NCBI GenBank assembly: GCA_046563655.1
Contig: CM102290.1
Location: forward strand, 558,001-622,000
Reading direction: 5' to 3'
Source: Yuukianura sp. NJ FZ-2021
Taxonomy: Eukaryota
DNA length: 64,000 nucleotides
Part shown: positions 5,807 through 54,324 of the stretch, piece by piece
Position numbering within the stretch: position 1 is the first letter of the stretch
Layout of the letters: each line of letters starts with the position of its first letter
Notes under the pieces: model-generated
Told to the model about the DNA's origin: nothing
Seen by the model: only the letters and a program-made list of their open reading frames with translations
The model's database searches: none
Made by a program: the position numbers and the translations under genes

Positions 5807-8800
5807 TCAGACGATTACTGACGGATAAAGTCCTGCTGGATGCTCTCCAATGACTACCAAATAAAAATTTTAGTCAAATTTCAAAAATTTTGTCAAATTT
5901 CAAAAATTTCGTCTTTCCAAATTTTAGTCTCACCCATGGCAGCAATCCATTTATACAAATCCTCTTCCGAACTGCAGCTAACTACGTTTCCAAAATACGG
6001 TTCCTCTCGACTCCTAAAATCAGAAAAAAAAACTTTCTTTTTTTTTGTTTTTTGAAAAAGTTTTTTTGAAAATGCTTTTTTATGTCACTTTCTACAACAA
6101 TCTGCACTATTTAATTAATTCATGAAAGTGAAAGTGCTGAGAGGTTTTAAAAATGGATTGATAAAAAATATTTCAGAAGAGAAAGGGGTGGCTTAGTTAT
6201 TATTTTTTTTTTGAAGATTCCTATCACCTCACACGCTCAAATTTTAAATGGTGACAAGGGAAGTGCACTATTCTTCTTTTTTTCAAAATTTGCCGCCACC
6301 AATATTCAAACTCGCACAAAAGCATGTGAGAAGGGTGAGTAATAAAATCAACTTTTCAAAAAAAGAGGACACAAAATATTTCATTCAGACAAAAACTTTC
6401 TCTCTTGTCCAAAAAACGCAAATTTTGAGTTTCCAGCCCCACCCAATCTCATCCCAATGGGGTAGAGATTGGGTGGGGCCGTGGAGAAGTTAACCAGAAC
6501 CTCAAAAGTCCCACCAAAAGATGAGCGTCCTTAATTATTAACGAGGAGGCGTTAATTGGAGTCCTTCTCTCAATCAGCCTCTCTCTTTTCCTTCATTTTG
6601 ATCAAACCACCTTCACCAGGAATTGAACCCACCACCCCCTCCTCCTTTTTCTAATTAAACCTTCCTCCATGAAACCATAATGAGTTCATACTTTCACCCT
6701 CACTTTTAAAACTCACCTCTTGAAGGGGTAGTTCCGTTTTACAAAAGTGAAAGCCCATCTAAGAAAACAACAAACAAGATGACTTTCTGAGGTTATGATT
6801 CCCAAAACAGATGAAGTTAACTAAAAAGTAAAAGTTAAGACTTCCCCGCCCCCTCTTTCCTTAACACTCAAGTGTCTCAGAAGGGAAATCTGGTGGTGGA
6901 GAGTTAGGTTAGGTAATGAGTGTCTGAATAAGTGATTGGAGAGATGGAGAAAGTTACAAGTGAAGTCAATTACAAGTGAGAAGAGTCATGCATCTCTAAT
7001 GAAAGTCTAGACTTACAAGATCATCAACTCAACCCCACGAGGACCCTCGTCCACAAAGCCTAATTTACCCACATAATTACTCCGCTTTATTAAAACACCA
7101 TTTCCCTACAAAAACTTGCTCCACTTTCTCCATCTAACACAACATACAACAACCTTAACTTGAATGATAACAAAAAAAAAATGTTTTTTCTAGACCAGGT
7201 TGTCCAATAACTCAATGTGTTTCATTTTGTTAAAAAATTTGAAAAACTTTGATCTACTAATTATTTTCATGTAAAGCAATTGGAATTGGGGGAAAAAAAT
7301 TATTTGAACCAAAATTTTTTTCAAACTCCGAGTTATTGGACAACCTGTTGTAGGAAATACCATTCGGTTGTCAAGGAACCTTGGTTACAACTTTGGCTTG
7401 ACAAGAGCGCATCAAAATCGGGACTTACTTTGGAGTAGGAGTTCGTTTGGATTCGGTCCCCATGTACCAGACGCTGAAAACAAAATTCAAAAAATTACAA
7501 AACTAACTTCCGCTTTGGCTAAGTTAGGCTTAACATTCCTCAAAAATTCATAGCCTAACAAGCACATAACTAAAATCTAGAATCTTCCCATTCGAGTCAG
7601 AACCAAGTCGTGTCAATTTTTAAAAATTTGTAACTTTTCCTACCATTAAGTGCCTCTTTCCCAAACATTTTAGATTTCATATCACGAAAGTTAGGCCTTT
7701 TGAGTTGAAAGGCACAATTTGAGACTTACATGTCCTCAATATTCCAGGAACCGAGTTCTGTTGCCGCCTGGAAAAACCAAAAAAAGTAACCGGGATAAAA
7801 CATTTATGACCAAAAGTGATTAATAATGGGCTGGAAAAAGGAAAATGAGGAACACAGTTTCCTTGTTCTTTTTAATTAATGCGAAAATGAGGGAAACTAT
7901 ATACTTTCTTTATCGAAAACTCAAAAAAGCAACCATCTAAGAAAATACCCGGGTGAAAATCGGGCTCCAACTCAAAAAAAACTAATAAAAAATATACAAC
8001 AAATCCAAAAAAGACATAAAATAATAATTGAGGGAAGCTTCATATTTCAAATGGCTTTTCATCATGCAGAGGTGGGTATTTACTCAACAAAAAAAATAAT
8101 AAAAAATAATGAAGCCAGGCTATTTTTTTGTAGCGGGAATCTTGTTTAAGCGTCGACTGGAGATGGAACTATTTTTTTTTTGGTACCGGCGGTAGGTTAC
8201 GAAACCCCGTCCCTAAAAAACTGCCCATTTCCATCTACCCGCGTATTCCATTCGACCTCTTCGTAAATGGAATGATTCCTATCTGCCTCCTGCTCTTCAA
8301 TTCGTAATTAATGGTCACCGTTAAGGCCTTGGATTGGGGAAGTCTTAATTATAAATCGAGGCGGAAAAAATAAAAAACCGGGTTTATACCCGGGTCTTAT
8401 GCATTTCGCTTTAACGAAAAAAAAACCGAGGGAGAAAAAAAGCGCACAAAATTTTGAATTCTTAAGATATGGATTTTGACACAGATGTATAAATTTTCCA
8501 AATTGTTCATTAAAAAGTGGTAGGGATGTTTTTTTTTTTAAAAACGTGCAACACAAGTCGCAAATTTCGTCGCAATTTCATAATGAGAAACGTTAATTTT
8601 TAGTGGTGAGCTATTTGAAACGGTACAATGTTTTGGCGGGAAACTTTTTTTTTGCATACCTTCGAATGCTTGTAGTACTTGAGCATAGCCCGTCCAAATT
8701 TGAAGGCGTACTTTTTGAAAGACTTGGATTTACTGTCAGCAAATTTGAAATCTCCGTAAACTGCAGTTGGATCTTTGGCCTAAAAGTTAAAAACGTTAAA

Positions 8801-16508: not shown

Positions 16509-19500
16509 ATGGGCAGTTACAGTCGAGTGAGATCAGTTAAACTGAAACGCAACTCACCCGAAGATCCCTTTGGCTTCACTCTGCGTGGAGGTCAAGAACA
16601 TGGCACCGGGATCTTCGTATCCTCCGTCACGCCCAAGTCAATCGCACACAAGCAGGGGCTCAAGGTCACTTTCAAAATTTCAGTTTTTGAAGAAAAAAAA
16701 ATTCAGCTTTTTTGAATTTTGGACTATTCCAAGGTTCCTTGACAAACGAATTGTATTTTCTACAACAGGTTGTCCAATAACTCAAAAATCTTGCTTCTAA
16801 TAACTTTCAGCACTAGTTTAGCACCAATTTTGTTTATACATTTTTCACATTTTTTTTTCAAACATTAAACACTTGAAATCGCATACGAATAAAATAAAAG
16901 TGGAAAAAAAATCAAAAACTGTCATAAAATGGAGGCGTTTGGTTTTTGAAAATTTTGACAAAAAATTGAAAAATCCAAGTTGTTGGACAACCTGTTGTAG
17001 AAAAAAGCATTTTTTTTTGTTTACGAACCTTGGACTGACTATTCTTCTGAAAATTTATGATTTTTCAAACCCTGTTTTTCGTTAGGTTGGTGATCAAATT
17101 TTGCGTGTGAATGGATTTCCTTTGTCTTTTGCAACACATAAGGAATGTCTAGCCGTCATGTCCATCCGAAACAGCATCAGTCTCAAAATCAGAAGTAAGT
17201 TTTTTTTTTTTCAAAATTTTGAAATTTTGAAAATCAATGTTTTTATTCGTAAAAAGGAGTACAGTATACAGTACTTGACGTGAGATCCCGTATCTCCATT
17301 GTTTGTAAAAGAAAAAAATTTAATTCAGGGCGTGAACGACGAACGTCGAAAAATTAGTAGGAAAAAGACAAGTAGAGCGGAGCAGGCAAATCTCAAAATA
17401 TTTTCACCAACTTTCTCCATATCTAAACACTAACTTAACATAACATTTTCTAAAAATAACTAATTAGTTGACTAATTAGCAGACGTGCCAAAAATATTTA
17501 GTTCCAATGCGTCTAATGTTAACAAAATCAGTATTTCGGGTCTTTTTGTTACTAAATATTCATTTAGCTAATATTTTTATTTTATTTTATTTACTAAATA
17601 TTTATAAAGTCAACATTACAGGCATGGAGACTAAATATTTTTGACATCTCTATACTTAATTATACTAATCATGCCATTTTGACTTAATTTAAGGTGTGGG
17701 GATGATTCCTGTACGTGAGCGTGGAGAGCCCTTGACCTGGTTTTTAATCGACAACACACAACTTCCGTCGCTCAACGTGCCGGTTGACCCCAGTGACCTC
17801 AGAATGCGCCACTCAACTTTTTTGTCACCAAAAAGATCTGACGGTGGAACGTCACCGCCGGGTGGGATCGATCACATTCCAGAAAATATTTACATTAACA
17901 CCAACGGTCACGTGGGGCTCGGCTGTTGGTAAGCTTGACTACTTCCAGTTGTGGACAATTACAAAACTAGCTAAAACTTTTCGCCTAACCTGAAACTTGG
18001 TGATCAGCAATGTTGACCTCTGTGGCATCTTACATTTTTTGCCAAAGTTGCTGAAAAAGTAGCCAACATTTTATACTTGAGGAAGGTATGGAGGTTATGT
18101 GCGTCATAATAAGCAAGTGCACGGTGTTTGATTTTGTGTGCTAAGAGCCTCCACTGTTGTTCGTCACGGTTGATCCATTGCGAATTGGATTGCAAAACTT
18201 TAGAACAACGCAGCGTCCTTGCACCATCATTCCCTTTTGATCCTCACTAGATAAAGCCTACCGTAACAAACTACCTCTAACAAACAACGGTTATCCACCT
18301 TTCAGTACATACTTCCAAAAAAATAGACAAAAAAAAATGAAATTTGTTGAACTCATAACAATTTGCCAAAAAATGAATGGTTTTGTTCAAATGTTATTTT
18401 TGGCTACTTTTGTCGTTGCAGTATTTGTCGTGGTCCACCCCACAAACCTGGAATATTCGTGCAGTCAACAAAATCCAACGGAGTTGCACGGGAAGCAGGT
18501 CTGCGTCCGGGTGACCAAATCCTGGAATGCAACGGTCACTCCTTCAGAGACGTCGAATTTCCGGAAGTAAGCAGCATTTCCTATTAAATTTTCCTGAAAT
18601 TTTTAACTTTTTGAAATTTAGAATTCTGCTTGTTAAACAGACAAATTTTCCTATTAAATTTATAGCTTTTTGAAATTTGGAATTCTGCTTGCTTAAACAG
18701 GCAAAGTTGGCTCACTTTTCAGAGATTTTAAAGTTATTAAACTGCTTTTTTTTAACTTTCTTTTCCGGCCTTTGATGATAATGGAACATTACACAAAGTC
18801 CGCAAGGAAACAGCGTAGCCTAACTTGAAATAATGTAGACTTTGACCTTGACCTTTGACCTACTTAGGCCATCTACCACTTGAAGTCGAGTAAGGAGCTG
18901 CGCTTGGTGGTGGTCAAAGGTGGAGCCTGTGATCTGTTTCCGGGAGAGTCAAGTGGCTACAACAGTTCATCCAGCAGTGTCAACGGAGAGACCATAACAT
19001 CACACGTATCAGTCAGCAGCGAAACTTCGGCAGCATCAGACGTCAACAACCTCGAAGAAGCTCTCGGTCGAGTACAAGTTTCTCCTGGAACTGGGTCAGA
19101 GGATCCAAAGTAAGTACATTTAAATATTATTTTAATCAAATATATATTAAATATTATTTTAATTAACTTTCCCTAAAGTTTTTCCCAAAACTTTACTGTT
19201 GACGGTTACTGTCTGTGTTGACTGTGATTTTGTTTAACAGGTTGAATAATACCTCATTTGTTTTTTGACTTTGCAAAAAAAAAGAGTGTCTTTCGTTTCC
19301 TTCATGGTATCATATCGTAGTCATGACAATACAGATTGGTACCAATTTTTGTTTTTTCATTTTTTGTTGTCAACAAGCGAGGTAGTACTCAACCTGTTAA
19401 AGAAAATTCATTTCCCGTTGTCAAAGAACCTTGCTTTTCTGGTCTAGGTCTATGGTTCCTCTGGATCGGAACATGGAGTGGGAGGAGGTGGAGCAAGTAT

Positions 19501-22160
19501 GGCGTTGCGCAAAGAAAGAGTCTTTGATAATTCAAATCAAAGGAGAACTCCCGCCTCTCCAAGATCAAATCAGACACAAGGAACTTCAACTCGAACTAGA
19601 ACGAAGGAATCTTGAGGAGGAGCAACGGAAACTTCAACAAGAGGCACAAAAGCTGGAACAGGAGAAACAAAAATTTGAAGTAATTTTGCACAAAAACGTA
19701 TTTTTTGGAAAAAAAAATGATTTTTGAATTTCGGTTTTTGTAGGAAGAAAAACGGAAGGCACTGGAAGAACGGACTGAACTGGAATCTGGGCTAGTACCC
19801 TCCGGGTCAACGGGCGGGTCACCTTCTCCGGCGGGTCACTCAAAACAGAATGACCTCGCTGGAGCTCTGTCCAACGAAATTCTAAAAAGATCAACGGTAA
19901 TCTTTTCAAATTGTTCACAAAATAAGTTTTTTGAAATATTTTTTGTTAAATTTAGCGCCGGGAACTTCAGCAGCAGCTAGAACCCAGCCTCACCAAAGCC
20001 AAAGATGGTGACGCGCATGCCCAACATTTTTCTGCTGCTGACGACATGAAGCGGCGACAACACGAGCAGCTCATAGAAGAATTCAAACGAGCTCACCGGA
20101 AAATGTTTGCACAGTCACAGGAAAACGGCCGGTCAAGTCCAACGGAAGACCATGGCAACGCAGGAGGGTCACCGAGACAGGTCAGTTTTACCGGTTTTGC
20201 GATAACCACTTTGCTACAAGGTTCGTAAGCTAAAAAATGTTTTTTCTACACCAGGCTGTCCAATAACTCGATATTTTTAAAAATTGTTCAAAAAGGAGGG
20301 TTTGCGTTAAGGTCATTTTTTGGGCCCAATGACCATATATGGAAATTGTGTAAATTTTGTTGCACAAGTTACCACCATTCGGGTTTTAAATTGCACAAAT
20401 TCCATTTTTCGGGTTTTTACATTGCACATATTCCACTTTCCGGGTTTTTACATTGCACCATGTACCACATTTCGGGTTGTTATATTGCACAAGTACCACT
20501 TTTAGGTTTTTTTTAAGCTGCACACTTAAACTTTTGGTTGACGAACTGAACAATTCGCAGGTTTCCAGTTTTGGACATTGCACAATTTCAAATTTTTGAA
20601 TTTGTGCACTGCAAACTTTAAACCTTTTCTATTTTTAACACGAATCGTCCCTCCTTTTCGGTTATCGGCATGATGCACCTGCATACTTTTGCGTTTTTAT
20701 ATTGCATAAAGTGCAATGTTTTTAGTTTCTGATGTTGCACAATTTCAAATTATTTAGTTGTAAGAGGTGCACAACTGACCACTTTTCAGTTTTTATGCTG
20801 CACAAATTCCACTTTTCGGTTTTTCTCCTGCACAAATTCCATTTTTTGGTCTTTCTTCTGCACAAACTCCACGTTTCGGTTTTGCGTGCTGTACAGTTCC
20901 AAACTTTGGCGACTTCAGTTTGTTATTTCAACATAAAACATACAAAGCAACAAACGTTGACTAGGCATTTCTTTAAGATTTTTAGCGAAAGTGCAACTTT
21001 TGCGGTGAAAGTGCCAAAAGGGAATGACCAAATTCACATACAAGGACTCCTGGCCACATCACGAAATTTCGGCCCTTACTTGCTAAGGCCATGATTGATC
21101 TACTGTGAAATTTTTGTAATGTGGCCAATAGTCCTTCCCCAGATTTACGGGGGCCCAATTCACCCGTAATAATCGAAAACGTCCTTTGAGAAACTTTTTT
21201 CCTATGATAATTATTTTCATACAAAGCAGTTGGAATTGGGGGAAAAATTATTTGAAGCAAAATTTTTGTAAACCCCGAGTTATTGGACAACCTTTTGTAG
21301 AAAATACAATTGGGTTGTCAAGGAACCTTGCTTTGCCGTGAGCACTTGGTTTTAACTTGGGTATATTCTATATTGTTTCATTAATTCAAGGAACGTGCGT
21401 CCTTTCGGGCCAAACGAACACAGAAGGAATTTGAACACACAAAGAAAATGGTCCAGAATCACGTGGCTGGAATTGTACGCCAGAGACAACTTAAAATTGA
21501 GCGCCAAAATCAAGAAGTGCAAGAAACAGAACGAGAGGTCATCGGAGATGGAAAACCAAAAAGTCGAGCTCCACAACCACCCGTAACATTAGCCGCCAAT
21601 TTCAAATTATCTTTTTCAAATTTCAAGATTTTCAAAACTTTCATTTTTTGGATTAGCAGAATGATGTATCTCGTAAACCCACTCCAGTCAATTCCAAAAG
21701 TCCGCATTTATCAACAGTTAGTTTTTTTTTGTTTTTCTGAAATTTTACTCTTTTTTTTTGGTTGATTTTTTTTTCCCCTGATTTTGAAATTGTCGATTTT
21801 TTAGTCTCCTCCCCCAGCAATTCGAATTCCGGCCAAAACAAGTTTACCGCCAGACAAGAAACTGTCGGATGAACAAATTCGCGACAAAGTTCAAGGTCAA
21901 GGTCAAGGTCATCGCGGGACACGGGGTCAACACCATGTTGAGTTTTCAGATCGCCCGCAAAGTCCTTCTCCAGACTACTCTAACACACCTAGCCCAGAGT
22001 TCGGACGGCGTTATGTAATGTTTTCAAAGTTTTGAAAACCTTAAATTCTAACTTTCAAAATTCGAAATTTCAAAAAAACGATTTTCTTTAGGTTCAGCAC
22101 CGTCGAAACGAAGGTCACCAAAAATCCAGATCAATTGTTCCCGGGATTCTCAAAACATGA
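16509..22160 (+). CDS. USH1C: Harmonin/USH1C-like PDZ scaffold (two PDZ domains, coiled coil, Pro/Ser-rich tail); true 5' start uncertain
   Basis: PDZ1 (FGFTLRGGQEHGTGIFVS...GDQILRVNG...VGMIPVRERGEPLTW) and PDZ2 (GLGCCICRGPPHKPGIFV...GLRPGDQILECNG) closely resemble harmonin PDZ1 and PDZ2. In-phase GT-AG exons: ..16664, 17086-17194, 17694-17928, 18422-18566, 18868-19109, 19448-19679, 19744-19896, 19956-20180, 21391-21582, 21657/21660-21716, 21805-22014, 22092-22160 (TGA). Confidence 0.8.
16730..17032. mobile_element. CAAGG-MITE family B copy (harmonin-like gene intron)
   Basis: CAAGGTTCCTTGACAA...TTACGAACCTTG, with subterminal CTACAACAGGTTGTCCAA / TTGGACAACCTGTTGTAG. Confidence 0.85.
17480..17652. 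mobile_element. MITE family C copy
   Basis: CAGACGTGCCAAAAATATTTAGTT...ACTAAATATTTTTGACATCTC. Confidence 0.7.
19214..19433. mobile_element. CAAGG-MITE family A copy (harmonin-like gene intron)
   Basis: TTAACAGGTTG...CAACCTGTTAA subterminal inverted repeat. Ends GTTGTCAAAGAACCTTG. The left terminus is degenerate. Confidence 0.8.
20217..21330. mobile_element. CAAGG-MITE family B long copy with an internal ~30-bp tandem array (~20360-20900)
   Basis: CAAGGTTCGTAA...GTCAAGGAACCTTG termini. Flanks CTTTGCTA / CTTTGCCG. Internal degenerate repeat TGCACAAATTCCACTTTTCGGGTTTT. Confidence 0.85.
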
Positions 22161-22511: not shown

Positions 22512-22795
22512 TTCCGGATTCTGAAGTATCATGGACGGATTCTGGCGTACGATGGACGGATTCCGGGGTATCACGGACGGATTCTGTGGTACAATGGACG
22601 GATTCCGGGGTGTCACGGACGGATTCTGGGGTACCATTGACGGATTCTGGCGTACGATGGACGGATTCTGGCGTACGATGGACGGATTCTGTGGTACAAT
22701 GGACGGATACCATAGACGGATTCTGTGGTAGAATGGACGGATTCTGGGGTATAATAGACGGATTCCGGGGAATCATGGACGGATTCTGTGTTAAC
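22512..22795. repeat. 21-bp minisatellite (ATGGACGGATTCTGGGGTACN), ~12 full units plus partial units
   Basis: Units start at 22531, 22552, 22573, 22594, 22615, 22636, 22657, 22678, 22699 (truncated), 22712, 22733, 22754 and 22775. Confidence 0.95.
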
Positions 22796-22813: not shown

Positions 22814-25800
22814 TTAAGCCATGGACGGATTGTGGGGTTGGAGGTCAACGCTCTCTTGAGCTCCAGTGCCGGATGCAGCGTGTTCCGTGGGTTGAGCCAC
22901 TTCTTCCCGCCCAACAAATACGCGGTACTTTTTTGAAATGAGACTCCAATCTGCTACGGTTTCAATCCTCTGTTGATGATGGAGGCCACTCATGGTGGAA
23001 CCCAGTGGGTGCATGGGACTGCCAGGGGTCATCGGACTCACTTGAGCCACACTCAGACGCATAATGTCAGAAACTAACAAAGAAATCAAAATTTAGTTTC
23101 GAAATTTCAATTTTTCCATCTTTTTTTTCAAAAACTACCTCTACCCCTAGGCGCCGCTTTCGTTTTGTTGAAGACTGTTTTCCAGCGTTGTTTGGGGGTG
23201 GGTTTACCAAACTGAAACAAATTTGCACCGCGTCCTACCAGCGGCGCTCCCTTCCTCTCCCACTTCAGGGGGTTGAACGGTTCTACAAAATTCAGGTTGG
23301 GGTTATGCAGATTAGGTTAGTTAGGCTAAGATTAGTCTAGTTAGGCTAAAATTAGGTTAGGGTACGTACCTCTTTTCTTCTTGCATTGACGATAGATCCA
23401 GATGATCCAGGACGTGAAGAGGTTGATAGGCGACGGAGTGGCTGAAGTTCGGTGCATGTTTCGTATGAGTTTGGCCAGGCCAAACTTCCATTCAATGTCA
23501 GACTGAGCTTGGATTCTTTGGTAAGTATCTGACATCATGGCAATTAACAAATTAATTAGCACAATTACTGTCACGAGCAAGTAAATTGCAAAGAAAATTT
23601 TGAACAAAAATTGAGTCCACTTGGGTTGAGTCATTTCCAACATGAGTTGATCAGCATTCGTCTGTCCAAAGAGAGCAAAGAACAGGAGTTCCAAAGTATC
23701 CAGTGGTGTGATCAGCACTAAAGTAAAAAAAAAATATATCTTTGAGGTTCATGATTTACATGGTTTGGGAGACAAAGAACGAGAGTGTAGAAAAAATAAA
23801 GAACCAGGTGGGATTCGAACCCATATCTCTGCGATTCAGGAGGAGCTCTGACCCTTGAGCTATGAAACTCTGTTCTACAACCCTGCAATTTTCGTGCAAC
23901 TTTTTTGAGTTACCTCCGGACGGTAGTCCTTGGGTCACCGTTGGCTTGGAAATGTTAAAATCCGACGGACGTGGATAAAACGGTTGATTGAGCGACGCCA
24001 TCACCATGGAGAATCCAGCCATAAAAATGGCCAATACTGCCAAAAACCGGGCCAAATCCTTCATCAAGTTTCCAATAATGATTGCCCATGGTCCAAACAA
24101 GTAGTGGAAGGACAGGAAGTCCAGAATTTGGACACAGGCAAGTAAAATGGCCACGGCGAACAGCTGATTTCGAATGTAGAAGACATGTGGATACCAAGAC
24201 CGGCCCACAAAATATCCAATCCCATGTACAACTACGGCCAAAATTGAAAATATCAAAACAGCCACTTTTATCCAGCCGAGTCCCGCCTTGTCACTTGGAT
24301 TCGTCACTTCCGATATGATGAGCCCAAGTAGCCATGCGAGTAGCACCCACTCATGCCAGTATGGAAAGAGACGCGTGCGCAGAACAGGGTAGATGGGGGT
24401 AATGGACGTTATGCAGAGGAGGACCATTAAGTAGATATGTGAAGTGAGGTAGGACATGAACTTGATAATGGGGATCTTGTGGAAACGGTGGCCCAGGGGA
24501 AGGGAAAACACTACCCACACTGGGGGGCAAAAGATGAAAGTAGCAAAGAGGAGCAAAAGCTTCCAGGATGCCCAAGTCAAGTTGCCCACCCAGAGTTCTG
24601 ACAAGTATCGCTGTACAGCCGTGTGAGCAATGACTTCCTTCTGCTCGTTTTCGATCAAAATGTCCAGGAATTGGACACTGCGACGGTCCACTGAACGCAA
24701 AAGTTTTCCAGCCGAATCTGGACCAGACGCGAGAGCCAGCAGTTCGGCTGCCATTGACTCGCAATATTTGGCAGCACCAATCAGATCCTTCGCTCGCTCT
24801 TTTTCCTGTTGGAACAACAACGGTGATAGGTTAGGTTATGTTCGTAGTGTTGCTGGATATCCACTTTTTCGACATTTCGTCCATGACTGGATATCCAGTG
24901 GAGGAAATGGACGAAATTATTTTACGAAAGCTTACGCGAGTGGATAGGCTGGACAAAATGTTTGAAAGTTTGGCGGCAATGTCGACGGGTGCAGGAGAGG
25001 CTAGTACGAAGTCGTTGATTGGCTCATTGTCATTGTTTTTTCCACATATAGTTAGGTTGTACACAAACTGAAATTGTTCAAACAAAATGTTGAAGTTTTT
25101 TTCGAAACTTTTTTGAAATATTTTTTGAAAACCTCTTTGTCTTCTAGCAGTCCATACGAGTCATGCTCCGTTTTCATGAGATAGTTGAGAACATGGTTGT
25201 GGTTTTCTGCTGCAGCGTACCAAATGGGGTAGAGCCCTTTGGCCGTTTTGGCCAACGGGGAAGCACCGCTTTCAATTAATAATTTAACAACGTCCAAGTG
25301 ACCAGCTTTGGCTCCACAGTGAAGCGGTGTCCACTTTTCCTAAAATTTTAAAAATTTTGAATTTTCCCAAATTGTAATTCTATGTTATGTTAGACTAACC
25401 TTGTCCACTGCGTCAATTTCTGCTCCCTGTCCCAGCAGTATTTCTACCATGGAGTGGTGCCCATAGACTGCTGCGATGTGAAGCCCCGTCCGTCCTTCGT
25501 TGTCTCTGCTTTCCAGTAGTTCTGAAGAGCGACTGAGCAGTAGTCCAACTATGGTTGTATGACCACCACGACATGCGAGATGAACTGCATTAAGGCCTAG
25601 GTTGACTGAAGGGGCGTCCACTTGGACCCCTTGGGAGTTCAGCAGCAGACGCACAACATTTTCTTCACCAGAGTACGACGCAAGGTGCAACGGCGTCAAG
25701 CCGGACTCCGTTCCTAGCTCTTTTAGAAAACTTGACGCAAGGGAAATTGGTGGGTCGGAGGCAATTGTCGCTGGGATGTACGTCAAAAGCTCACGAACGG

Positions 25801-28800
25801 TTTCTGAAACAGCAAAAAGTCCAAGATCAACGACAGTTTCCAGGAAGGTCAAAGGTCACAATTTCCAAAGTCAAAAGTTAAAGTGAAAAATCAAATTAAA
25901 AGCAAAACGTCAACAATCGGATCTTCAGATCTCAAATTGTAGAAGTGGAAGTGTCAAATTTCTAAAGTGAAAGCAAAACTACAAATTTTAGAATCTTGCT
26001 CCAAATTGAAATTCGGTTGAATTTCAGAGGTCAGAGGTCAAATTCGAAAGGTCAAAGGTTACCAGTCTGTCCAAAGTATGCTGCGATGTGTAGACCAGTG
26101 AGGCCCAACTTTCTGCTGCTAAGGCTAATGGCGTCAGTCTCAGAGTTGCGCAGAGAGTCAATCACATTTGTATGCCCGTTTTTACTTGCGAGGTGAATCG
26201 CTGCATATCCCGCCTAAAATAGTTTCAAAATCTTAAAACTTTTTTTCAAAATTTTGACAAATTGCGCTTTTTTTACTCGGTTTTCATCAGTAGCTGAAGC
26301 TCCCGCTTCCAGCAGAGCTTTGACTAGTTCAGCATGTCCGCCTTCCGCTGCCAATTGCAGCGCAGTCGCATCTGTACTCCGATTTCTAGCTGAAATGACT
26401 CCTTGCTTGTCAAATTTCATGAGTTCCTCTAATACTGACACTGAACCTTGCATTGCCGCCAAGTGAGCACAGGTACTTCCATCCTAAATTTTAAAAAAAA
26501 ATGATTTTTTTTTCAAAATTTTGAAAAAGTTCGAAATTTGGAGTTACTTTAGTAGCACTGGAGACAAGTGCTGGTTGACTCTTGAGAAATAGTTTGATGA
26601 CATCTCCATGGTTGTTTTGTGCCGCCAAGTGAATCGGTCTTTGGCCTTTTTCGTCGGTAGCGTCCGGATTCGCTCGGAGACCGAGCAGCAGCCGACACAC
26701 TTCGAGCTGACCCGTCTCAGCTGCTAGGTGTAGTGGAGTTTGCTTTTTCTAAAAAAAAATACAATTTCAAAATTTCAAAACAATTTCTTAAAAATTTTAC
26801 AAAATTTCTTACCAGAGTGACGACGTCGACGTAAGCGTTATGTTCTTGGATAAGAAAAAGACACAGTTTGGTGTAGCCCTTCATCGCTGCCATATGCAGA
26901 GCAGTAAACCCTATTCGAGACTTGGCGTTGATGAACGCCTTGTGCTTTAGCAGCATTCCACAAACTTGCTAAAAATTTTCAAAATTTCAAAAAAATTAAA
27001 ATTTTGAAAATTTTGAAACACCAAAAGCCTACCTGGTAGCCGTGTTCTGCCGCTAGATGCAGGGCCGTCCTTCCATCATTGTCAAACACATCAACTCGTG
27101 CATTATTTTCCAGCAGCGTTCGTACGACCTCCGTATGACCTTTGTGTAGCAGGTGAAATGGTCAAAATAATTTGATCAAAAAGTGAAAAGGTGAAAAAGT
27201 GACAAGGTCAAAAAGTGAAAATGTCAACAATTACAAATACAGGCTAGGTTTTCTCAAGTTTGATCATCTTACTTTTGACCTTTTTACTTTTTGACCAAAT
27301 TGTTTTTGACCGTATTACATAAAACTGACCTTTGTGACACGCGATGAGTAGAGGTGACCACCCATTGGCCGATTGCTTGTTCAATGCCCGTTGACATTCC
27401 ACTGGAGTCATGCGCGTCAACATTTCTGTCAAAATGTCGTTGTTTCCCTCTCTAGCACAGTAGTGAAACACAGTTTCATGGGTCTACAAAAATACCGTAA
27501 AATTTCCAAAAAGTGGTTCAGGCACTTATGCATCCATTGAATACTGGAGGGTCCGATTTGAACTTTTAAGGTAAAATTAATTCAAAGTTTTTTACGTCTT
27601 TTGTTTGCTGATAGACCGATGCACCACCGTTGAGTAAAAGTTGTGCAATTTCCCGCGCAGCCTCATGCAGATTCCTATTGGTGGATGACATTTCACTGTG
27701 TTTGGAAGCGTAGTGCAGGGCCGTCTCGCCCTTGTTTGTGGGCGTGTTGATGTACAACCCAACGTCAGTCTCTCCACGCTCTCGTGAAATGTACTGTAAA
27801 AGCTCCTTTACAACCCGCAAGTGACCGAAACGACAAGCAAGATGAAGTGGAGTTTCACCATCCTGCAGAAAAGTAATTCAATTATTTTTTTTACTGATTC
27901 AATAATTTAATTAATTAATATACTATTATTAGAGTTATAAATAATTGCTAATACAGTATATTAATTAATTATATATTATATTTATAAATTATATAATAAT
28001 GTATGCATATATTATAATATTAATTGTATATTATATTTTTCTATTCTTTAATTTACAGTTACTTACCTTGGATTTGAACATCGGGTTTGCACCGTCATTG
28101 AGCAGAAGTCGAATAATTCGGAGGCGACCCACACGAGCGGCGACATCTACAGGAATTGGGGAAATTATTGGAACAATTACGGTAAAAGTTTGGAATTTTT
28201 TTTAAAAATTAAGTTGAAATTTTCAAAATTCTGAAATTGAACTTACGAAGAGGCGTTTCCCCGTTTTCCATTGTAATGTTAGGATCAGCACCGGATTTGA
28301 GAAGCATTTGGGCACACTTGTCCCCTTCGTTGACTCGGGCAGCAATGTGCAACGGAGTTTCTTGTGCTCTGCCGCCTTTTAAAAAAAATCAAAAATTTTA
28401 AAAATTTTACTTAAAATTTGTTAAAAAGTTAAGTAAGTGCTAAAATACTGCTGTGCTTTACCTTTGATGTGGACTTGTGCACCATATCCAAGAAGAGTTT
28501 CTACAACGCCTGGTCGTCCTGACTCAACGGCAATGTGCAACGCAGTGTAGTTGTCCTAAATTTGTTAATTTGTATAATTCAAACAATTAATATAATTAAA
28601 ACTTTAAATTATTTTAATTAATATCTAAGTTTACGTTAGTGGTAGCGTCCACTTTCTCTCCTTTCTCCAGCAATTTGCTGATCATGGCAGCATGGCCGTG
28701 GCGAGCCGCAATGTGCAAGCTCCTGGCTCCTCCCTTCAAAGGTCAAAGGGTAATTACTAATTACTTTAGTATTTTGGAGTAATTACTAAGTAATTAGCAA

Positions 28801-31800
28801 GTAATTACTCTATTTGGCATCTGAAGTGGCACACCCTTCCGGAACAGGGCCATTGCAGTGTCAGGATGGCCATGCAGGGAAGCAATGTGCATCAGCGTAC
28901 TTCCGTCCTTGGTTCGTTCAAAAACTGACACTTTGAATTTTTCAGCCAAAAGTTCAATAATAGCGGTATGTCCATGCTGAGCAGCAATGTGAATTGGAGT
29001 TCGATCTAGAAAAAATGTATTCAAAATTTGAACAAAAAAATTCAATTTCAAAAACTAAAATTTTCAAATTCAAACCTTGCTTGTCTGAAATATTTGGATT
29101 TGCTTTACAAAGGTAAAAGAATTTCAAAAGATTTTCTTCTCCTTCAGCGGCGGCGATGTCTGAAAAAAAATTATATTTTTTCTTCTTTTTTTGTCAAAAA
29201 TTTCTGCAAGATTTGCTTTCTTTGTCAAAAAAAAAATTTTTTTTTTAATTTTCTTACGCATTGGGGTTTGTCCATCTCCCTGAAATTTTTGTGACATTTT
29301 AAAAATTTTATAAAAAAAAGAAGTTAATTTTTAATTTAATTTTAATTTAATTTTTTTATAATTATATAAAAAATTTTAAAATTTCAGTTTTAAAAAATTA
29401 CATTTTTGGCATCAACATTGGCTCCTGAATCTACGAAAATTCTGGCAGTTTCCAAATCTCTTTTTCGGATGGCGAGGTGCAGGGCCGTATCACTGCGTGG
29501 TCCGGCCTTGGCACGCATCTGCTCATGCGCAAGATGAGACAACAGTTCTTGACATGCTCCTCGCGTGCCCGTTGTCAAGGCAATGAACAATGGAATATTT
29601 CCGTCTCCATCTTTGACTAGACGGGCGTCTTTCGGCAAAGCTCCAAGCAGAACTTTGATTATGTTGGTGGCATTCCCACTTGGTCTAGTACATGCCAAGT
29701 GCAGAGCCGTCTGCTTCTTACCCTATTTCAAAATTCAATTTCCAAATTTCAAAATTTTCAAAACCAAAATTTTGAACTTTTTGAATTTTTCATACCTGTG
29801 TTACAGCAGTAGCATCAGCCTTCTTAGCCAACAGAAAACGAACAGTCTCATCTCTCCCGAATAAAGCAGCAAGATGCAAAGGAGTGAAAGTCTCCTACAA
29901 AGAAAATTCAAAATTTCGAACATTATTTTTCAAAATTTTCAAAAAATTTAAAAAATCTATTTAGTTTTTCATGTCAACACGAATAGATACCAAACCTGAA
30001 AAATTCGTTTTTGAAAATTGCCGAGAACTTAGCCGAGAACACAATAATTTTAAATATAATATTAATTTTAAATTAGATTACCTAACTGAGGTGTAATAAC
30101 CTGCTAATGCAGGAAACTTTCAGAATAAATTGAAATTGAAATTGAAAATTGACCTTACGTTTTTTTAATTGTTTTCTCAGAATTCGTTGTTTTTGAAAAA
30201 TGTGAACTTTTTCACATCATTTCGGAGAAGTCCGCGTGTGTTTGAAAACGGAAATTTTTGAAAATGGATCATTAAATGAAGAATGGCGTGCTGCATTGAT
30301 TTGGAAAAGGAAATTAACAACTCTTCGTTCCATTTCCAATGACACATTTTTCTAACTAAACAAAAGTTAATTGGAGATTAACAAATCAATTAAATAAGTT
30401 TAGGTTAACATGTAGTCCATGACTAAAAGTAATTCCATTGATTTTAGACTTTTCCCTCCTTTGTCTTCATCTTATGCTTGGATTTTTATGCTTTTCATCA
30501 TTCTTTTTTAGAAAGTAGCGTGCTAGAAACAGTAAAGAAATTTCTAACGATTTTGAGATGACCTCATTCGATACAACTTTCAACCAAAGCTCTAACTCTC
30601 CCCTCCTGTCATGTGACCATAAAGGTTGGTCATTGTCTTGACCTAGGTCACACCACTTACTTAAAGTCCTTATATACTCAGTTTCACACCTCATACATCA
30701 CTGTTAAACTAAAGGTGTGAAAAGTTAATTAACTAATTTTAGTTAATTACAACTAATTTTAGATAATTACAACTAATGTGGCGTCTGTTAGCAGCCCCAC
30801 AGCCAACCCCCAAAGATATTTAGCCTTCCGATTCTATTGCTTCTGATTGGAGTCTGATAGCTCAATGGTTAGAGCTCTTCTAGGATTGAAGCGATTAGGG
30901 TTCGAGTCAAACTCGGTTCATATTTTTTTCTTCACTGTCATTCTTGAGCCATTTTGACCCGTGGGCCCCCTTAAACTACACACTAACGATAAGTTCTTCT
31001 TACCTTATTGCAGGCATTTACATCACAGCCGAGTTCAATCATGCGTTCAGCCAGAGGCACACGATTGTCTTTTACAGCGAACATCAACGGAGTCCAGCCA
31101 GTTTCCTGGAAGAAGGAAAAAATTTTGAAAATTTTAAATTTTAAAATTTCAAAGTTTTTGTGGATCCAAATCAATTTTTTTTACAGTGTGGAACACTAAA
31201 GTGGAGAAAGTGGAAAATAAGTATAAAATTTGAGGCAGTAAAATTTTATGGAAAATTAGGACAATTTCGTTTTATGAGGAGAAGGATGTGAAATATTTTT
31301 GAAATGTTGTTTTTTGAAAAATATGATTCTTTTTTTTTTTTGCAAAATTTTTGATTTTTCTTTTAAACTTTTTTACCTCGTCAGCGATTCCAGCGAGTGG
31401 CTTGAACTCTTCATGTGGCCCAACGTAAAAGCTCTTCTCAAGGTACCTCAGATTCTGTTCCACTGCATGCCAGTCTGACTTCTGACAAAGGGTCAGGACC
31501 CTTAAGGCCAATTCTTTTACTTTCTCTTTTTCCAGCTCATCTATCCTGTCGAGGGCAGGGCCAGTGTCAAGGGTCACTCCTTGGGGGTCCCTTTTCAAAT
31601 CTCCAGCAACAGAAACCCCCGTCGAAGGGTCCCCATGACCACCCACTGGAGGGCCCTTCTTCTTCTCCCCCTCACCACCCACCTTCTTCTCACCGTGCCC
31701 TTCAGCCGTCCCCTTTTTCTTGTCAGGGAGCCCTTCAGCCGCCACCTTTTTCTTTTCAGGGAGCCCTTCACCCGCCCCCTTCTTCTTGCCCTCAGGCGGG

Positions 31801-33562: not shown

Positions 33563-35352
33563 TGTTGTTTTTTCAAAAAACGAAACTTTTGAAAAACTTT
33601 TTCGAAAAAGTGATTTTGTGACACACTAAACCTCTGAGTCCGAACTCGACGGTTATTGAGGACGCAGGACTGTTTTGGATTTTGGTCGAGTCGGACTGAG
33701 GTTTGAAGATGAAGTGATTGTGTGACCCATTAAGAACAGCAAAGAAACTTTTTCGAAATTGTGAACCTTCGTTTTTTGCTAAAATTTTGAAAGTGCCCTG
33801 CGCCTTGGCTCACTTCCCTTTTTAGAAGTCATGCCAAGAAGTGAAATGAGGACCGTGAAGTGGGCCACATAGCCTCACTTTGACTTGATCCCACTTTAGT
33901 AAGCCCTTAAGATGACGAATCCACTGGAAGTGTGGCTCAGGCCATGCATCACTCAGTCACAATAGCCTAACGAATGCTAAAAAGTGGAACTCTGTCAAGA
34001 AGCTAATGCACTCCGAACCCTCCAGAATGGATCTCAGGCGAAGGCAACTTCCGCTCTCAAGCTATACAACTTTCACCGAGAGTGAATCGAACCCCCGCCT
34101 CCTTTAGTTCGCAACCAACAATAAGACCACACAGCTACACTCAACATTCCGTTTTACTTCGAAAGTCACACAAAACAAAAACGATTTCTTGGAATATTGA
34201 GTCTCCACATCATCAGGAGGTCACGATTGACATTTATGCTCATGAAAACGTAAATTCTTTTTGGTCATTATAACACAGTTGAAAAGAAACTTTTTTGTCT
34301 AAGTCTCAGGAATACCTAAAATTTATTTTTTCTCCAAACCCACTTAAAACTCATTTTGCACCGTGAAACGATAAAAAGTTGTTTTTTTTTTAATTTTAAA
34401 ACTGGACCAGAAAATTTTTCGGATCACGTAGAAAACTTTTTTTTTTGTCTTTCTTAGCTTTTTTTTTTCACGTTTTACGACGTTTCAGCTCATTTTCAAT
34501 CGTTTTCCTCACAATTTTTTTTGGTGGACACCAATTGTTTTGGTCATGACCATGTTGAGAGACTGGTGACAACTCAAGTGTCTTGGACCATGTTCCATGT
34601 CAATGGCATCGTCTGATGGTTTTGGAATGTTTTAGTGCGAAGAATTGTAAGGGTGGAGAAATGTGGGAAGTGCCACGCACGATTTGGCACTCTTTGGTCC
34701 ACTTCTGCTTTCCCCACTTTCTCCTTACGGGAAGTCTGGGAGGAATGAATGGTTGTTTTGCATGTTGGCACCCTCCCCAGTTCAAAGTTTCACAACTCTT
34801 AAAACAGTACACACCAACCATCGTTCCAATTGCATTGCCCCCGAGGGGGTGGGGGGAGGGGGATGGGTCAACTTAAGAAAGTCATAATTCCCATGCACAC
34901 ACACAGCAAATGGACAAAACAAACGCAAAAACCCCAACTTTCCCTCATTTCTTGGCAGAGCCGTTGACCCACTTTCAAATTTTTTATAAACTCCCGCCTG
35001 CTCCAGAAGTTCCAAATTTAAAACTCCGACGTAAAATGGAAACAGTGTTGGAAAAAAATACCGTAGAGGTCAAAGGTCAAAGTTCAACAGGTGACCTACA
35101 GCACAGTTCAAAGGCATAACGTCCAAAGTGTCTAAAATTTGAAATTTTTCAAGGCAATCGGTCGTCTCAAAAAATTTTCAAATTCTTCTTGAAAAAAAAA
35201 ATCGTTTTTGGTCTGAACCCAAATTAAAATTTCACACTGAAATGCAGGCAGCGGAGAAATGGCAAATTTGACTTCAATTTTTTTTTCTCGAAAAACAAAA
35301 CAGTTTTTTTTGTCTTTAAAAAAGAAAATTGGTATTATTAGTAGATGGCGAC

Positions 35353-35593
35353 CAAGATTGCTATAGCGACCATTTATACAAATGGCGTTAAGAGGTTATG
35401 TCATAACTCCAATTCAAAAAAACAAACAAGAAAAAACAACTTTTGGACCAATTTTGGACCAATCCCATTTACTTTACATGGTGCGAGGTCAACAAAATCG
35501 TAGAAAATTTCAAAACAAACAATTTATGACATAAACAAGTTATGACATAACCTCTTAACGCCATTTGTATAAATGGTCGCTATAGCAATCTTG
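35353..35593. mobile_element. Young 241-bp MITE with perfect 56-bp TIRs and a perfect 9-bp TSD
   Basis: CAAGATTGCTATAGCGACCATTTATACAAATGGCGTTAAGAGGTTATGTCATAACT at 35353-35408 and its exact reverse complement at 35538-35593. GATGGCGAC lies on both sides. Confidence 0.93.
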
Positions 35594-36058
35594 GATGGCG
35601 ACATTGAACAAAACTTTTTTAGCCAGTAGCACCTCGAACCAATCCACTCGTTTTCTTTATTTTTTTGAATTTCTGAGCCAAGCCAACCAGTTTGTCTTTT
35701 GTCACTACAAAGGAAGCAAGTGAGTAGAAAAATGTCTAATCCTACAAATCTAGGCTTCAATGGTCACATTGGAATGACGTCAATCCAGCTCATTTCCCTA
35801 CACTCCAATACAAGTACTTTTATAGCAACTAATTTACCAATATAGGACAAAAACTAAACTAAAACTCAAATTTCAACTGTTGAAGTTAACTAAACTTGGG
35901 TGTACGGTAACTAAAGTTAATCAAAACTGAGTTGGCTGGTCAGGAATTCCTTAATATAATATGTATGGATGCTCTTATAACTTTTGTAGAGATACGTGGC
36001 AGGTTATGTCATGGGTCATTGATTGGCTGCGAGTAACTTAAGTGGTCCACTTGTCAAA

Positions 36059-43161: not shown

Positions 43162-46100
43162 ATGGCTGTCGCTTCGTATCAGGTAAGATGAATTGAACGA
43201 TGTTCTATGGACTGGTTGGTTTTTGGTGATACGTCAACGGTTATTAATCTCGCGACTTTGTGTTTTTTTCTAAATTTCTTTTTTCTTGCAGTTGGAAACA
43301 TTGATAGGATCCGTTTATAGAAAGGGGAACGTCGTATTTCTACCTACCAGTGGAGACACTGTTCTTAGTCCAGTTGGCAACAGAATTAGTGGATTCGATT
43401 TGAAGAAGTAAGACTTCAACCATAATAAAGAATTGAACATCATGGACCGGCTTTTCTATTTTTGTTCAAATTTGCAGTTATGTCGCCAGTACAATTTCGG
43501 TGGAGAGCAGCCACAATTATGTCACCATGCACGTTTCGCCTAATGGAAAATTACTCATTGCTGGAAACGAGAGTAATTTTCAAATATGTCTATAAGTTAC
43601 TGATACTCACGCCTGGGAACTAATTTCTCTTTGTTTATTGTTTGTTGCATTGGCAGTTGGTGAAATTCACGTAATTAGTCTCGAGTCGAAGAAATTACTT
43701 CACTTGCTCAAAGTCGGCCAGCCACCAATTGCTATTAGGTTCTCACCAAACGGGATGTATTTTGCTGTTCTCAAACAAAGTTCAGGTAGATTCATACATA
43801 GCAAACTATGTAGTTAATCGATAAATTTCAACATTTGTTTATGTTTCAGTTGTTATTTATGAGTCACCTTCTGCCCTTGAAAATACTAACCCTTATTACA
43901 TGAAGAGAGTATTCTCTGATTTCGCTGATTCCCCAACATCAGTGGACTGGTCATACGATTCCAAGTAAATTACATTAGTTAGCAGATACTTTTTTTGCTT
44001 GCAATCTTTCTGTTTTTCAGAAGCATTTAGCCAACTTAACTATTTCTTATTTCGTTTCAGATTAATTGGAATTGGTGGAAGAGATAACTGTATTCGGGTT
44101 TATCCGATGGACAAATATGCCAACTTCGTTCCAGTAACATTCACGGGACATTCAGATGTAATAGTCAACCTATTTTTCGAATCAGACAGTTACGATTTAC
44201 TGTCACTGAGCAAGTAAGACTTTTTAAAATTTTGAAATTAGAATCTAAAATTTCAAAAATCCAAGTTAACTTGTTTCAGAAACGGACAACTGTGTAAATG
44301 GGAATGTTCAGGAACTGAACTTTTCGCATACGTTGAAAAACGTGACCTTTCTGAAGCATTGAGTGATGACGAAATTGTGGATAGACAGAAACTGGAAGCC
44401 GTTTCTAGAAAAAGTAACAAAGTTTCACAGTTTAATCACATCAATCCTGTTTTTAATAATTTTGATTTCTTTGTAGAGAAACATGCCAAAGGAAACAAAG
44501 TTCCTGCTAAGAAGATGGAGGAACACAACGATACTTCAGTTCGTGAACGGCCACTATTTTTTAAGAAAACTGCTCGTCTGTACTTCTCTGATTTATTCAA
44601 AGACCAAAAACGAGCTGATCTCACTTGTGTCGACTACAACAAAAGTACGAAAGTGCTTGTTACGGGTTTTGCCAATGGCATGTTCGCTCTGCACCAGCTA
44701 CCCGAATTCACGCTCGTCCAAATCCTCAGGTAATCAATTAACTTTCAATCAATTGATTCCGTAGCACATCATTACCGCGAAAACAATAAGCACTTTGGAT
44801 TCCCAATAATCAAGGTTCTTTGACAACGAAAAGTTAATTTTCTTTAACAGGTTGGCTCCTACCTCGCATGGCGACAAAAAAAAACATTTAAACTTTTTAA
44901 CAAATTAACAAAAAAGAAACAGTACCAATTTAGTCCTAATCCGAAAAATTGGTACCAATTCGCATGCAAAATTAAAAAAAAAAATAGCTGTATTGTTATG
45001 ACTATGATACCCCGAAGTGAGAAGATATTTTTTTTTGCAAAATCAAAAAAAAAAAACATGAGGTATTACCCAACCCGTTAAAGAAAATGAAAAGTCAACA
45101 AACCTTGCCCTGTAATCATGTTAATGAACTGCTTCTTGTTTGTTCTACAGTCTCGATGAACAACAGATTTCTACAGTGTCCATGAATAAGTCCGGAGATT
45201 TGATTGCCTTTGGATGCTCTAACCTTGGTCAACTGCTGGTGTGGGAATGGATTTCGGAGACTTACACTCTAAAACAACAGAGTCACTTTGACACTATGAA
45301 TGTCTGTGAGTACTCTCCGGATGGGTCAAAGATTGCCACTGGAGGCGAAGATGCAAAGGTCAAAGTATGGGAAGCGGACTCTTCTTTTTGCTATGTCACG
45401 TTTAGTGAACACACAAGTGCAGTTACTGGCATTGCCTTCTCTAGTAACGGAAAAGCCGTTCTGTCTTCGTCTATCGACGGAACCGTTCGTGCCTTCGACT
45501 TGGTACGGTACCGGAATTTCCGAACTTTCACGTCACCAACACCAGCACAATTTAGTTGTGTCGCTATTGACTCAAGTGGTGACATTGTTGCCGCTGGATG
45601 TCTCAATCTTTTCGACATTTTTGTATGGTCTCTCAAAACTGGGCGACTCATTCAGGTAACTAACCAGTCCATCATTAGTATGAAGTTCATTTTGAACACG
45701 GTTTGTTGAGTTTGATTTTTTTTAACAGGTTGGGTAATTCCTCATGTTTTTTTTTTTTGAAAATTAAAAGTGCTTTTCATTTCAGGGCATCGTAGTCATA
45801 ACATAACTATACAGCCGAATTTTTTAAATTTTGCATACGAATTGGTAGCGACTTTTCGGATTGGTACTAAAATTGGTACCAATTTTTTTTTTCGTTTTTC
45901 TGTCAACAAGCGAGGTAGTATCCAACCTGCTAAAGAAAATTAACTTTTCGTTGTCAATGAACCTTGATTCTGAATGTTAAAGTGAACTGAAATTTTGTTA
46001 GGTGCTGTCCAAACATACTGGTCCAGTATCCAATCTAAAGTTTAATCCGACTCCAGGAAACAGTCAGCTGGCATCGGCAAGTTGGGATAAATCACTTCGA

Positions 46101-50634: not shown

Positions 50635-54324
<3,690 letters not shown>

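Follow-up and report, generated by a model that had tools for sequence, protein, structure and literature searches.

How does a new intron come to stand inside a conserved coding exon? The question is raised by a 64,000-nucleotide stretch of Yuukianura sp. NJ FZ-2021 (assembly GCA_046563655.1, contig CM102290.1, positions 558,001 to 622,000), analysed here as a whole and called the window. In its nompC gene, read from the minus strand, an ankyrin-repeat exon is divided by a predicted intron with the same 11 bases at either junction. An original prediction, made from the letters alone, ascribed this intron to a DNA transposon whose duplicated target had supplied both splice sites. Our analysis makes it highly probable that the intron is new and that an insertion, by whatever agent, formed it and duplicated 11 bp of the target. 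Two readings of that agent, transposition and repair of a double-strand break, are close.

Structure of the nompC intron

The 11-mer CACAAAGGTCA (minus strand; TGACCTTTGTG on the plus strand) is found at 27326-27336 and again, 190 nt away, at 27136-27146. The two copies, designated repeat family D4, are 100% identical and enclose a segment of 179 nt (27147-27325). On the minus strand the junctions in nompC read ...GCG TGT CAC AAA G|GTCAGTTTT...CTGCTACACAAAG|GT CAT ACG or, in longer form, ...ATC GCG TGT CAC AAA G|GTCAGTTTTATG...CCTGCTACACAAAG|GT CAT ACG GAG GTC.... The first copy of the 11-mer provides the GT and the second the AG that limit the intron: the upstream copy, CACAAAG|GTCA, provides the GT donor as well as the 7 exon bases before it, and the downstream copy, also CACAAAG|GTCA, provides the AG acceptor and the first 4 exon bases. 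The predicted intron (27329..27140) is 190 nt long, is of the GT..AG type and in phase 1, and splits a Gly codon. It is the sole canonical GT..AG pair that preserves the reading frame.

The upstream exon (27330..27483, 154 nt) follows the acceptor ttttgtag|ACC at 27484/27483 and ends ...TGT CAC AAA G. The downstream exon (27036..27139, 104 nt) runs from GT CAT ACG to GGC TAC CAG and is followed by the donor CAG|gtaggc at 27036/27035. Removal of the intron in silico restored the frame exactly: the joined exons (27483-27330 + 27139-27036) encode ...LLIACHKGHTEVVRTLL..., also written as THETVFHYCAREG...LLIACHKGHTEVVRTLLENNARVDVFD.... When the joined peptide was compared with 120 listed NompC proteins, 116 matched, and all 116 matches spanned the junction gap-free within ±5 residues. 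Both the exact 11-mer whose copies contribute GT and AG and the full recovery of the protein had been claimed in the original prediction, and both were borne out. Splicing of 27329..27140 is predicted from this restored frame together with the intact, conserved exons downstream.

The gene occupies 22868..31766 on the minus strand, with ankyrin-repeat exons followed by an ion-channel domain. A colinear tblastn chain to P0005 (residues 5-1710) extended from about 31766 to 22868, and the transmembrane exon was 65-72% identical to the 120 hexapod proteins listed, which are mostly 1200-1800 aa long. Some of the listed hexapod proteins are named NompC by their source and carry ankyrin and PF00520 domains. 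These protein matches identify the gene as a NompC/TRPN channel, orthologous to insect nompC. At or adjoining the last nompC match (22868-23020) lies a 21/42-nt tandem repeat, CGGATTCTGGGGTACCATGGA, in about 9 copies (22515-22788).

Rarity of the junction repeat

The junction repeat measured 7+4=11 nt, compared with 0-5 nt in the other nompC introns (n=13). Among random GT..AG pairs in the window, junction repeats of at least 11 nt were found in 4 of 200,000, an estimate that carries a caveat because the 9-mer CAAAGGTCA within the 11-mer is over-represented in the window. Exact 11-mer pairs 30-600 nt apart numbered 196 in the window, many of them within tandem arrays and ankyrin repeats. Among AGGT-containing repeats of at least 8 nt in the window, the focal one alone had a length of at least 11 nt and long open frames on both sides. 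The rarity lies in the placement of a repeat on both splice junctions of an open frame, not in 11-mer pairs as such, and a chance origin of the junction repeat is unlikely. The repeat scan and the 13 other nompC introns agree with the earlier remark that no other intron in the window has a junction repeat of comparable length.

Comparison with relatives

The open reading frame (ORF) running from the upstream exon into the intron was used as a query and matched five ORF fragments (P0121-P0125) encoded on genomic contigs from other organisms. A metagenome scan with the alignment of these fragments gave three nompC loci: L001 (15.5 kb), L002 (7.3 kb) and L003 (1.9 kb). All three were colinear with the window across many exons, at 65-82% nucleotide identity.

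At the orthologous site the three loci and the five fragments have a single 11-mer region and no intron, and the insert is missing. Both 11-mer copies of the window mapped to one stretch in L001 (10157-10167) and in L002 (6376-6386); the window's flanks overlapped there by exactly 11 bases, the hallmark of an empty target site. In L002 a single exon of 258 nt, the sum of the window's 154 and 104 nt, reads ...ccag|ACC CAC GAA...GGC TAT CAG|gtatgt..., with its acceptor and donor at the same positions as in the window. The position of the downstream donor is also common to L001 and to all five fragments. The target site itself reads TGTCACAAAGGACAT in L002 and TGTCACAAGGGACAC in L001, so that the AG|GT is particular to the window's lineage. 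The 40-aa focal junction peptide was contiguous in each locus, with identities of 87% (L001), 90% (L002) and 74% (L003).

The fragments run uninterrupted through ...LLIACHKGH(K/T/A)(D/E)V..., which in P0125 reads ...LLIASQKGH.... P0122, P0123 and P0124 stop at GYQV, and P0121 and P0125 continue past it into non-conserved sequence. The next donor of the window falls at GYQ|V, so the intron that follows is apparently kept in the fragments.

Other introns of the gene were compared at the same loci. In L002, all 10 of the other covered window introns were interrupted at the same place; in L001, 10 of 13 were interrupted, 1 was contiguous (29257-29160) and 2 were unclear. In L003, 6 of the 7 other covered introns were contiguous and 1 was unclear, indicating that the lineage of L003 is intron-poor. 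The density of nompC introns varies greatly among related lineages, as seen in the Orchesella-like L003 (1-1852) and in L001/L002. The intron at 25804-26062 is common to L001, where it measures about 100 nt, and is 259 nt long in the window; the opening 15 nt, GTAACCTTTGACCTT, reappear 203 nt further on as GTGACCTTTGACCTT. It may represent a second insertion with duplication, into an older short intron, or a recurrence of the motif.

Direction and age of the change

A tree was built from the 84-aa exon product (84 columns only). For its rows we selected the three loci, P0121-P0123 and 7 of the 120 NompC proteins, and omitted P0124 and P0125, which begin within the exon. The window was sister to L002 with support of 89/91, and the pair fell within a clade of L001 with P0123, P0121, P0122, and L003 with Orchesella (P0099). 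Six insects stood apart at 100/99. The place of the window in a clade with Orchesella suggests a springtail or a near relative as its source; a PWP2 exon gave no such indication, because PWP2 is too highly conserved among eukaryotes. All other members of the clade with genomic DNA lack the intron. Empty sites alone give no direction, because precise loss leaves the same site. One gain is nevertheless far more parsimonious than several precise losses, because the window is nested among relatives that lack the intron. By this comparison the branch leading to the window gained the intron, in agreement with the lineage-specific gain of the original prediction.

Several features point to youth. The copies of the 11-mer are identical at 11 of 11 positions. 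The acceptor, ctacacaaag|G, has no T-run before the AG, whereas such a run was seen in 13 of the 13 other nompC introns. The length of 190 nt compares with 64-130 nt in most of the other nompC introns (two measure about 260-270 nt).

Structure of the inserted segment

The 179-nt insert (27147..27325) is an A/T-rich, hairpin-forming palindrome composed of 8- and 16-nt units of the GGTCAAAA/GTGAAAAG type. As DNA it folded into a long imperfect hairpin of -28.3 kcal/mol (z -4.6), a value equalled by 0 of 200 shuffles; the whole intron folded as RNA gave -45.2 kcal/mol (z -4.3). On the plus strand the repeat unit is TCAAAAAGTGAAAAGG, present in 3.2 copies. An 8/16-nt period at 27176-27227 (D1, D2) is mirrored in the opposite arm (D3, I1-I3). 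The best complementary arms, 27164-27197 and 27273-27306, pair over 34 nt at 88% (I1) and can be extended to 54 nt at 81%. In gene orientation the 5' arm of this subterminal inverted repeat lies at 27259..27311, with its core at 27273-27306, and the 3' arm lies at 27160..27212, carrying T-rich TTTTGACC/TTTTCACC units on the RNA. Both arms are built of short tandem sub-repeats.

Searches with parts or patterns of the insert were made in several collections. When up to 3 mismatches were allowed, each of its terminal 16-mers had a single chance match in the window. In Rfam the only matches were to hairpin families of plant miRNAs and fell below threshold (27.8 bits; gathering score 95), and a phage collection gave no match. 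One degenerate repeat-unit pattern matched 80 loci in genome contigs, all bacterial, and its 84 matches were rejected as simple repeats unrelated to the insert. These arose because the pattern allowed an all-purine variant: 83 of the 84 were one all-purine 16-nt unit and 1 was a close variant (Prevotella, Acidobacteriota and similar). The loci concerned (L005-L084) include many Prevotella, Bacteroidaceae and Acidobacteriota genomes with short GTGAAAAGGTGAAAAA-type arrays that are unrelated to the nompC insert.

Within the window, a shared element was considered for the repeat-rich part of intron 26062-25804 (z 4.2) and for a minisatellite at 58066-58350 (z 3.3). Similarity was weak in both and does not amount to evidence of kinship. 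The minisatellite has 8.5 copies of the 34-nt unit AAAGGTCAAAAGTCAAAGTGACGTCAGAAGGCAA, takes up the greater part of an intron in a different, plus-strand gene, and is similar to the nompC insert at the level of motifs. Clusters of AGGTCA in inverted orientation elsewhere in the window formed no comparable foldback.

Two further origins of the intron were rejected. Intronisation of coding sequence was ruled out by the orthologues, which have no extra residues at the site. Introns can also be gained by tandem duplication of an AGGT-containing exon segment, the donor and acceptor then coming from the two copies of the exonic AG|GT. The nompC intron resembles the products of that route in that both splice sites derive from copies of one exonic AG|GT. 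However, in that route the intron is duplicated exon, whereas here 11 nt are duplicated and the interior of the insert is unlike the flanking exons, which ruled the route out.

Proposed mechanism

We propose that a staggered cut of 11 bp at CACAAAG|GTCA in the nompC exon received a 179-bp foldback piece of repeat DNA. Filling-in of both overhangs would have duplicated the target. The upstream copy and the first two inserted bases would form the donor AAG|GTCAGT, and the downstream copy would form the acceptor ...CACAAAG|G. Removal of the insert and one copy restores the frame exactly because the duplicated target holds AG|GT. The T-rich TTTTGACC units, the 3' arm reading TTTTTGACC/TTTTTCACC repeatedly on the RNA, would serve as pyrimidine tract and branch site, with a candidate branch point in TTGAC (A at 27162, 22 nt before the acceptor AG). 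The hairpin may bring the two splice sites together. Because the insert is palindromic, T-rich units would probably lie on the 3' side in either orientation.

As the agent we favour, tentatively and with a slight lean over the capture of filler DNA, a non-autonomous foldback element, similar to a miniature inverted-repeat transposable element (MITE), inserted by a transposition-type event. The duplication is clean, with no target bases lost, and the fold is far stronger than in shuffled controls. The genome also has recently active MITEs, for example at 35352-35594.

The element at 35352-35594 has perfect 57-nt terminal inverted repeats and ATGGCGA(C) on both sides, a 7-8-bp duplication, and looks like a very recent MITE insertion. 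A MITE-like family with ends CAAGGTTCCTTGAC...CTACAACAGGTTGTCCAATAACTC occurs at 7183-7360, 16744-17016 and 20235-21311. Related ends occur at 19227-19407, 44834-45091 and 45043-45760, and may belong to one family or to two related ones; several of the MITE-like copies apparently lie between exon-like ORFs. MITE families in the window have at least 3 copies and terminal repeats abutting their duplications, unlike the nompC insert. The genome thus holds active small DNA elements of a kind different from the insert.

Points against a mobile element

A number of observations weigh against transposition as the source of the insert. No second copy was found in the 64-kb window, where blastn gave motif-level matches only, and none in the 24.6 kb of L001-L003; the degenerate repeat-unit pattern had 0 matches in viral contigs. 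The outer 14 and 13 nt at the ends of the insert are unpaired and not complementary, matching at about 6 of 13 positions when read by eye. The inverted repeats are subterminal and do not abut the target duplication as those of the MITEs in the same window do. Of the palindrome with terminal inverted repeats of about 40 bp originally described, the strong hairpin stands, but its arms start 13-14 nt inside the ends, and a DNA transposon with terminal inverted repeats is not supported.

The length of the duplication is also unusual. Eleven identical bases exceed both the 3-9 bp quoted for Introners (PMC9860276) and the 8-10 bp given for Mutator-like elements in the available text of PMC5225508; for the latter the original prediction had taken 9-11 bp to be typical. 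A true 9-bp duplication extended by two chance matches (about 1 in 16) may account for the excess. In addition, relatives are distant, at about 70% nucleotide identity in exons, and a gain called recent is recent only in a relative sense.

The insert's repeat unit, GTGACAAGGTCAAAA at 27199-27213, is similar to the duplicated 11-mer. Within this 11-mer, the 9-mer CAAAGGTCA has 17 sites in the window against about 1.1 expected, an excess of about 15-fold that is largely due to short (A)AAGGTC arrays dispersed across the window. There were 0 occurrences of CAAAGGTCA in the 24.6 kb of L001-L003, and by this comparison it is a repeat motif specific to the window's lineage. Together, the likeness of the 11-mer to the insert unit and the excess of CAAAGGTCA hint at repair guided by homology, not at random targeting by a transposase. 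Sites of CAAAGGTCA/TGACCTTTG include 18849, 25850, 35071, 53666 and 61619, frequently as GGTCAAAGGTCA or within (A)AAGGTC arrays. We take the motif to resemble a nuclear-receptor DR1 site.

Alternative explanations

Repair of a staggered double-strand break is the alternative that survives best, and we regard it as a real, if somewhat doubtful, possibility. Here 11-nt overhangs would have been filled in and stray or templated local repeat DNA captured, perhaps part of a foldback element or a stretch copied from a GGTCAAA-rich minisatellite. As a rule, mobile elements account for most large clean insertions with exact duplications, and this counts against repair, as does a 179-nt insert with 54-nt complementary arms, which is unlike random filler. 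Furthermore, blastn found no donor sequence in the window, and repair would also have to account for an 11-nt stagger. The insert is, however, single-copy in the sequence searched (the window and L001-L003) and lacks terminal inverted repeats, and its units resemble both the target and the motif CAAAGGTCA common in the lineage. A similar minisatellite fills another intron (58066-58350), although this local similarity is weak. The 11-bp repeat and the internal 8/16-nt repeats also fit the new introns of Daphnia pulex, as far as these are described in the available text of PMC4202315.

A second explanation is that the intron does not work, the insert being either an artefact of assembly or a recent insertion that is not spliced and disables the gene (a null or polymorphic allele). 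This is very unlikely. The splice sites are weak (donor +3 = C, an AAG acceptor, no T-run), and retention of the insert would bring a stop 28 codons in (ORF 27244-27483). The downstream exons are nevertheless all intact, junction peptides are 74-100% identical to L001/L002, and the channel domain is 72% identical to insects. The arms have diverged to 81-88%, which, if they once formed a perfect palindrome, would mean long persistence without decay of the gene. Against an artefact, three DNA runs from one sample, from which the assembly itself may have been made, contain 79-85% of the words sampled from the 2.3-kb stretch.

That the intron is old, was lost precisely in all sampled relatives and carries a coincidental 11-nt repeat aided by a common motif is barely credible: precise loss would likewise yield a single-copy, "spliced" site, intron content does vary in the group (L003 lacks 6 of 7), and CAAAGGTCA is a frequent 9-mer in the window, but several independent precise losses would be needed in place of one gain, L002 keeps 10 of 10 and L001 10 of 13 (2 unclear) of the other introns, a random GT..AG pair would carry an 11-nt junction repeat with a probability of about 2e-5, and the acceptor is atypical for nompC.

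Comparison with known systems

Transposon-derived introns known as Introners have been described in Micromonas, Aureococcus, dinoflagellates, Florenciella and copepods (Gozashti et al. 2022, PMC9860276; 2025, PMC12130899). In Florenciella both splice sites are drawn from the insertion site (PMC9860276). The nompC insert shares with Introners the insertion into an exon, a target duplication that gives the splice sites and, as predicted here, an mRNA of unchanged length after splicing. In contrast, Introners are present as many near-identical copies, and the nompC insert had no second copy in the sequence searched. In the portions available to us, the 2022 survey places Introners in only two animal groups, copepods being named, and its supplement flags Eurytemora and Lepeophtheirus and none for Daphnia (PMC9860276). 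A literature search, judged by title and abstract, gave no report of Introners in springtails and none of springtail intron gain. It is unlikely on the present evidence that the insert belongs to an Introner-like foldback family that makes unusually long (11-bp) target duplications and is active in a land-living hexapod, probably a relative of the springtails.

In Daphnia pulex, 33 new introns show 4-12 bp of the neighbouring exon end again at their other end, and 55 of 90 new introns have internal direct repeats; the available text explains them by the repair of double-strand breaks with staggered ends (Li et al. 2014, PMC4202315). The nompC intron, with 7+4=11 nt, has an exon-end repeat of this type. 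The two cases further share a pancrustacean host, presence and absence among relatives, internal short repeats and, as far as that text goes, an insert of unknown source (PMC4202315). They differ in that the nompC comparison is between species and not within a population, and in that the nompC insert is a long hairpin.

Foldback derivatives of Muta1 in Aedes aegypti offer a third comparison. Their arms consist of short tandem sub-repeats (PMC5225508), and according to the portion of the paper at hand they resemble the nompC insert in this, in being small non-coding elements and in the long target duplication. In the same source the terminal motif of the Muta1 derivatives abuts an 8-9-bp duplication and copies number in the hundreds, whereas the nompC insert has non-inverted ends and a duplication of 11 bp. 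Both routes of formation, by Introner-type insertion and by break repair, are already in print.

Other features of the window

A 488-nt inverted repeat with arms at 51284-51771 and 51902-52389, 130 nt apart and 99% complementary, adjoins a tryptophan 2,3-dioxygenase-like ORF (50981-51433). Either a foldback duplication or an artefact of assembly may account for it.

Implications

Individually documented animal intron gains that display the unoccupied site, the target duplication and the insert together are rare, and they are raw material for the study of intron origin. The nompC case presents the conversion of exon to intron at single-base resolution, in an essential mechanosensory channel gene of touch and hearing, with GT and AG both drawn from the duplicated target alone. 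If further copies of the insert come to light, transposon-driven intron gain would be extended to a land arthropod; if it is unique, the break-repair route described for Daphnia would be extended beyond that genus. Should an Introner-like family be confirmed, it would be new for the lineage, and the high intron density of this genome may be partly transposon-made.

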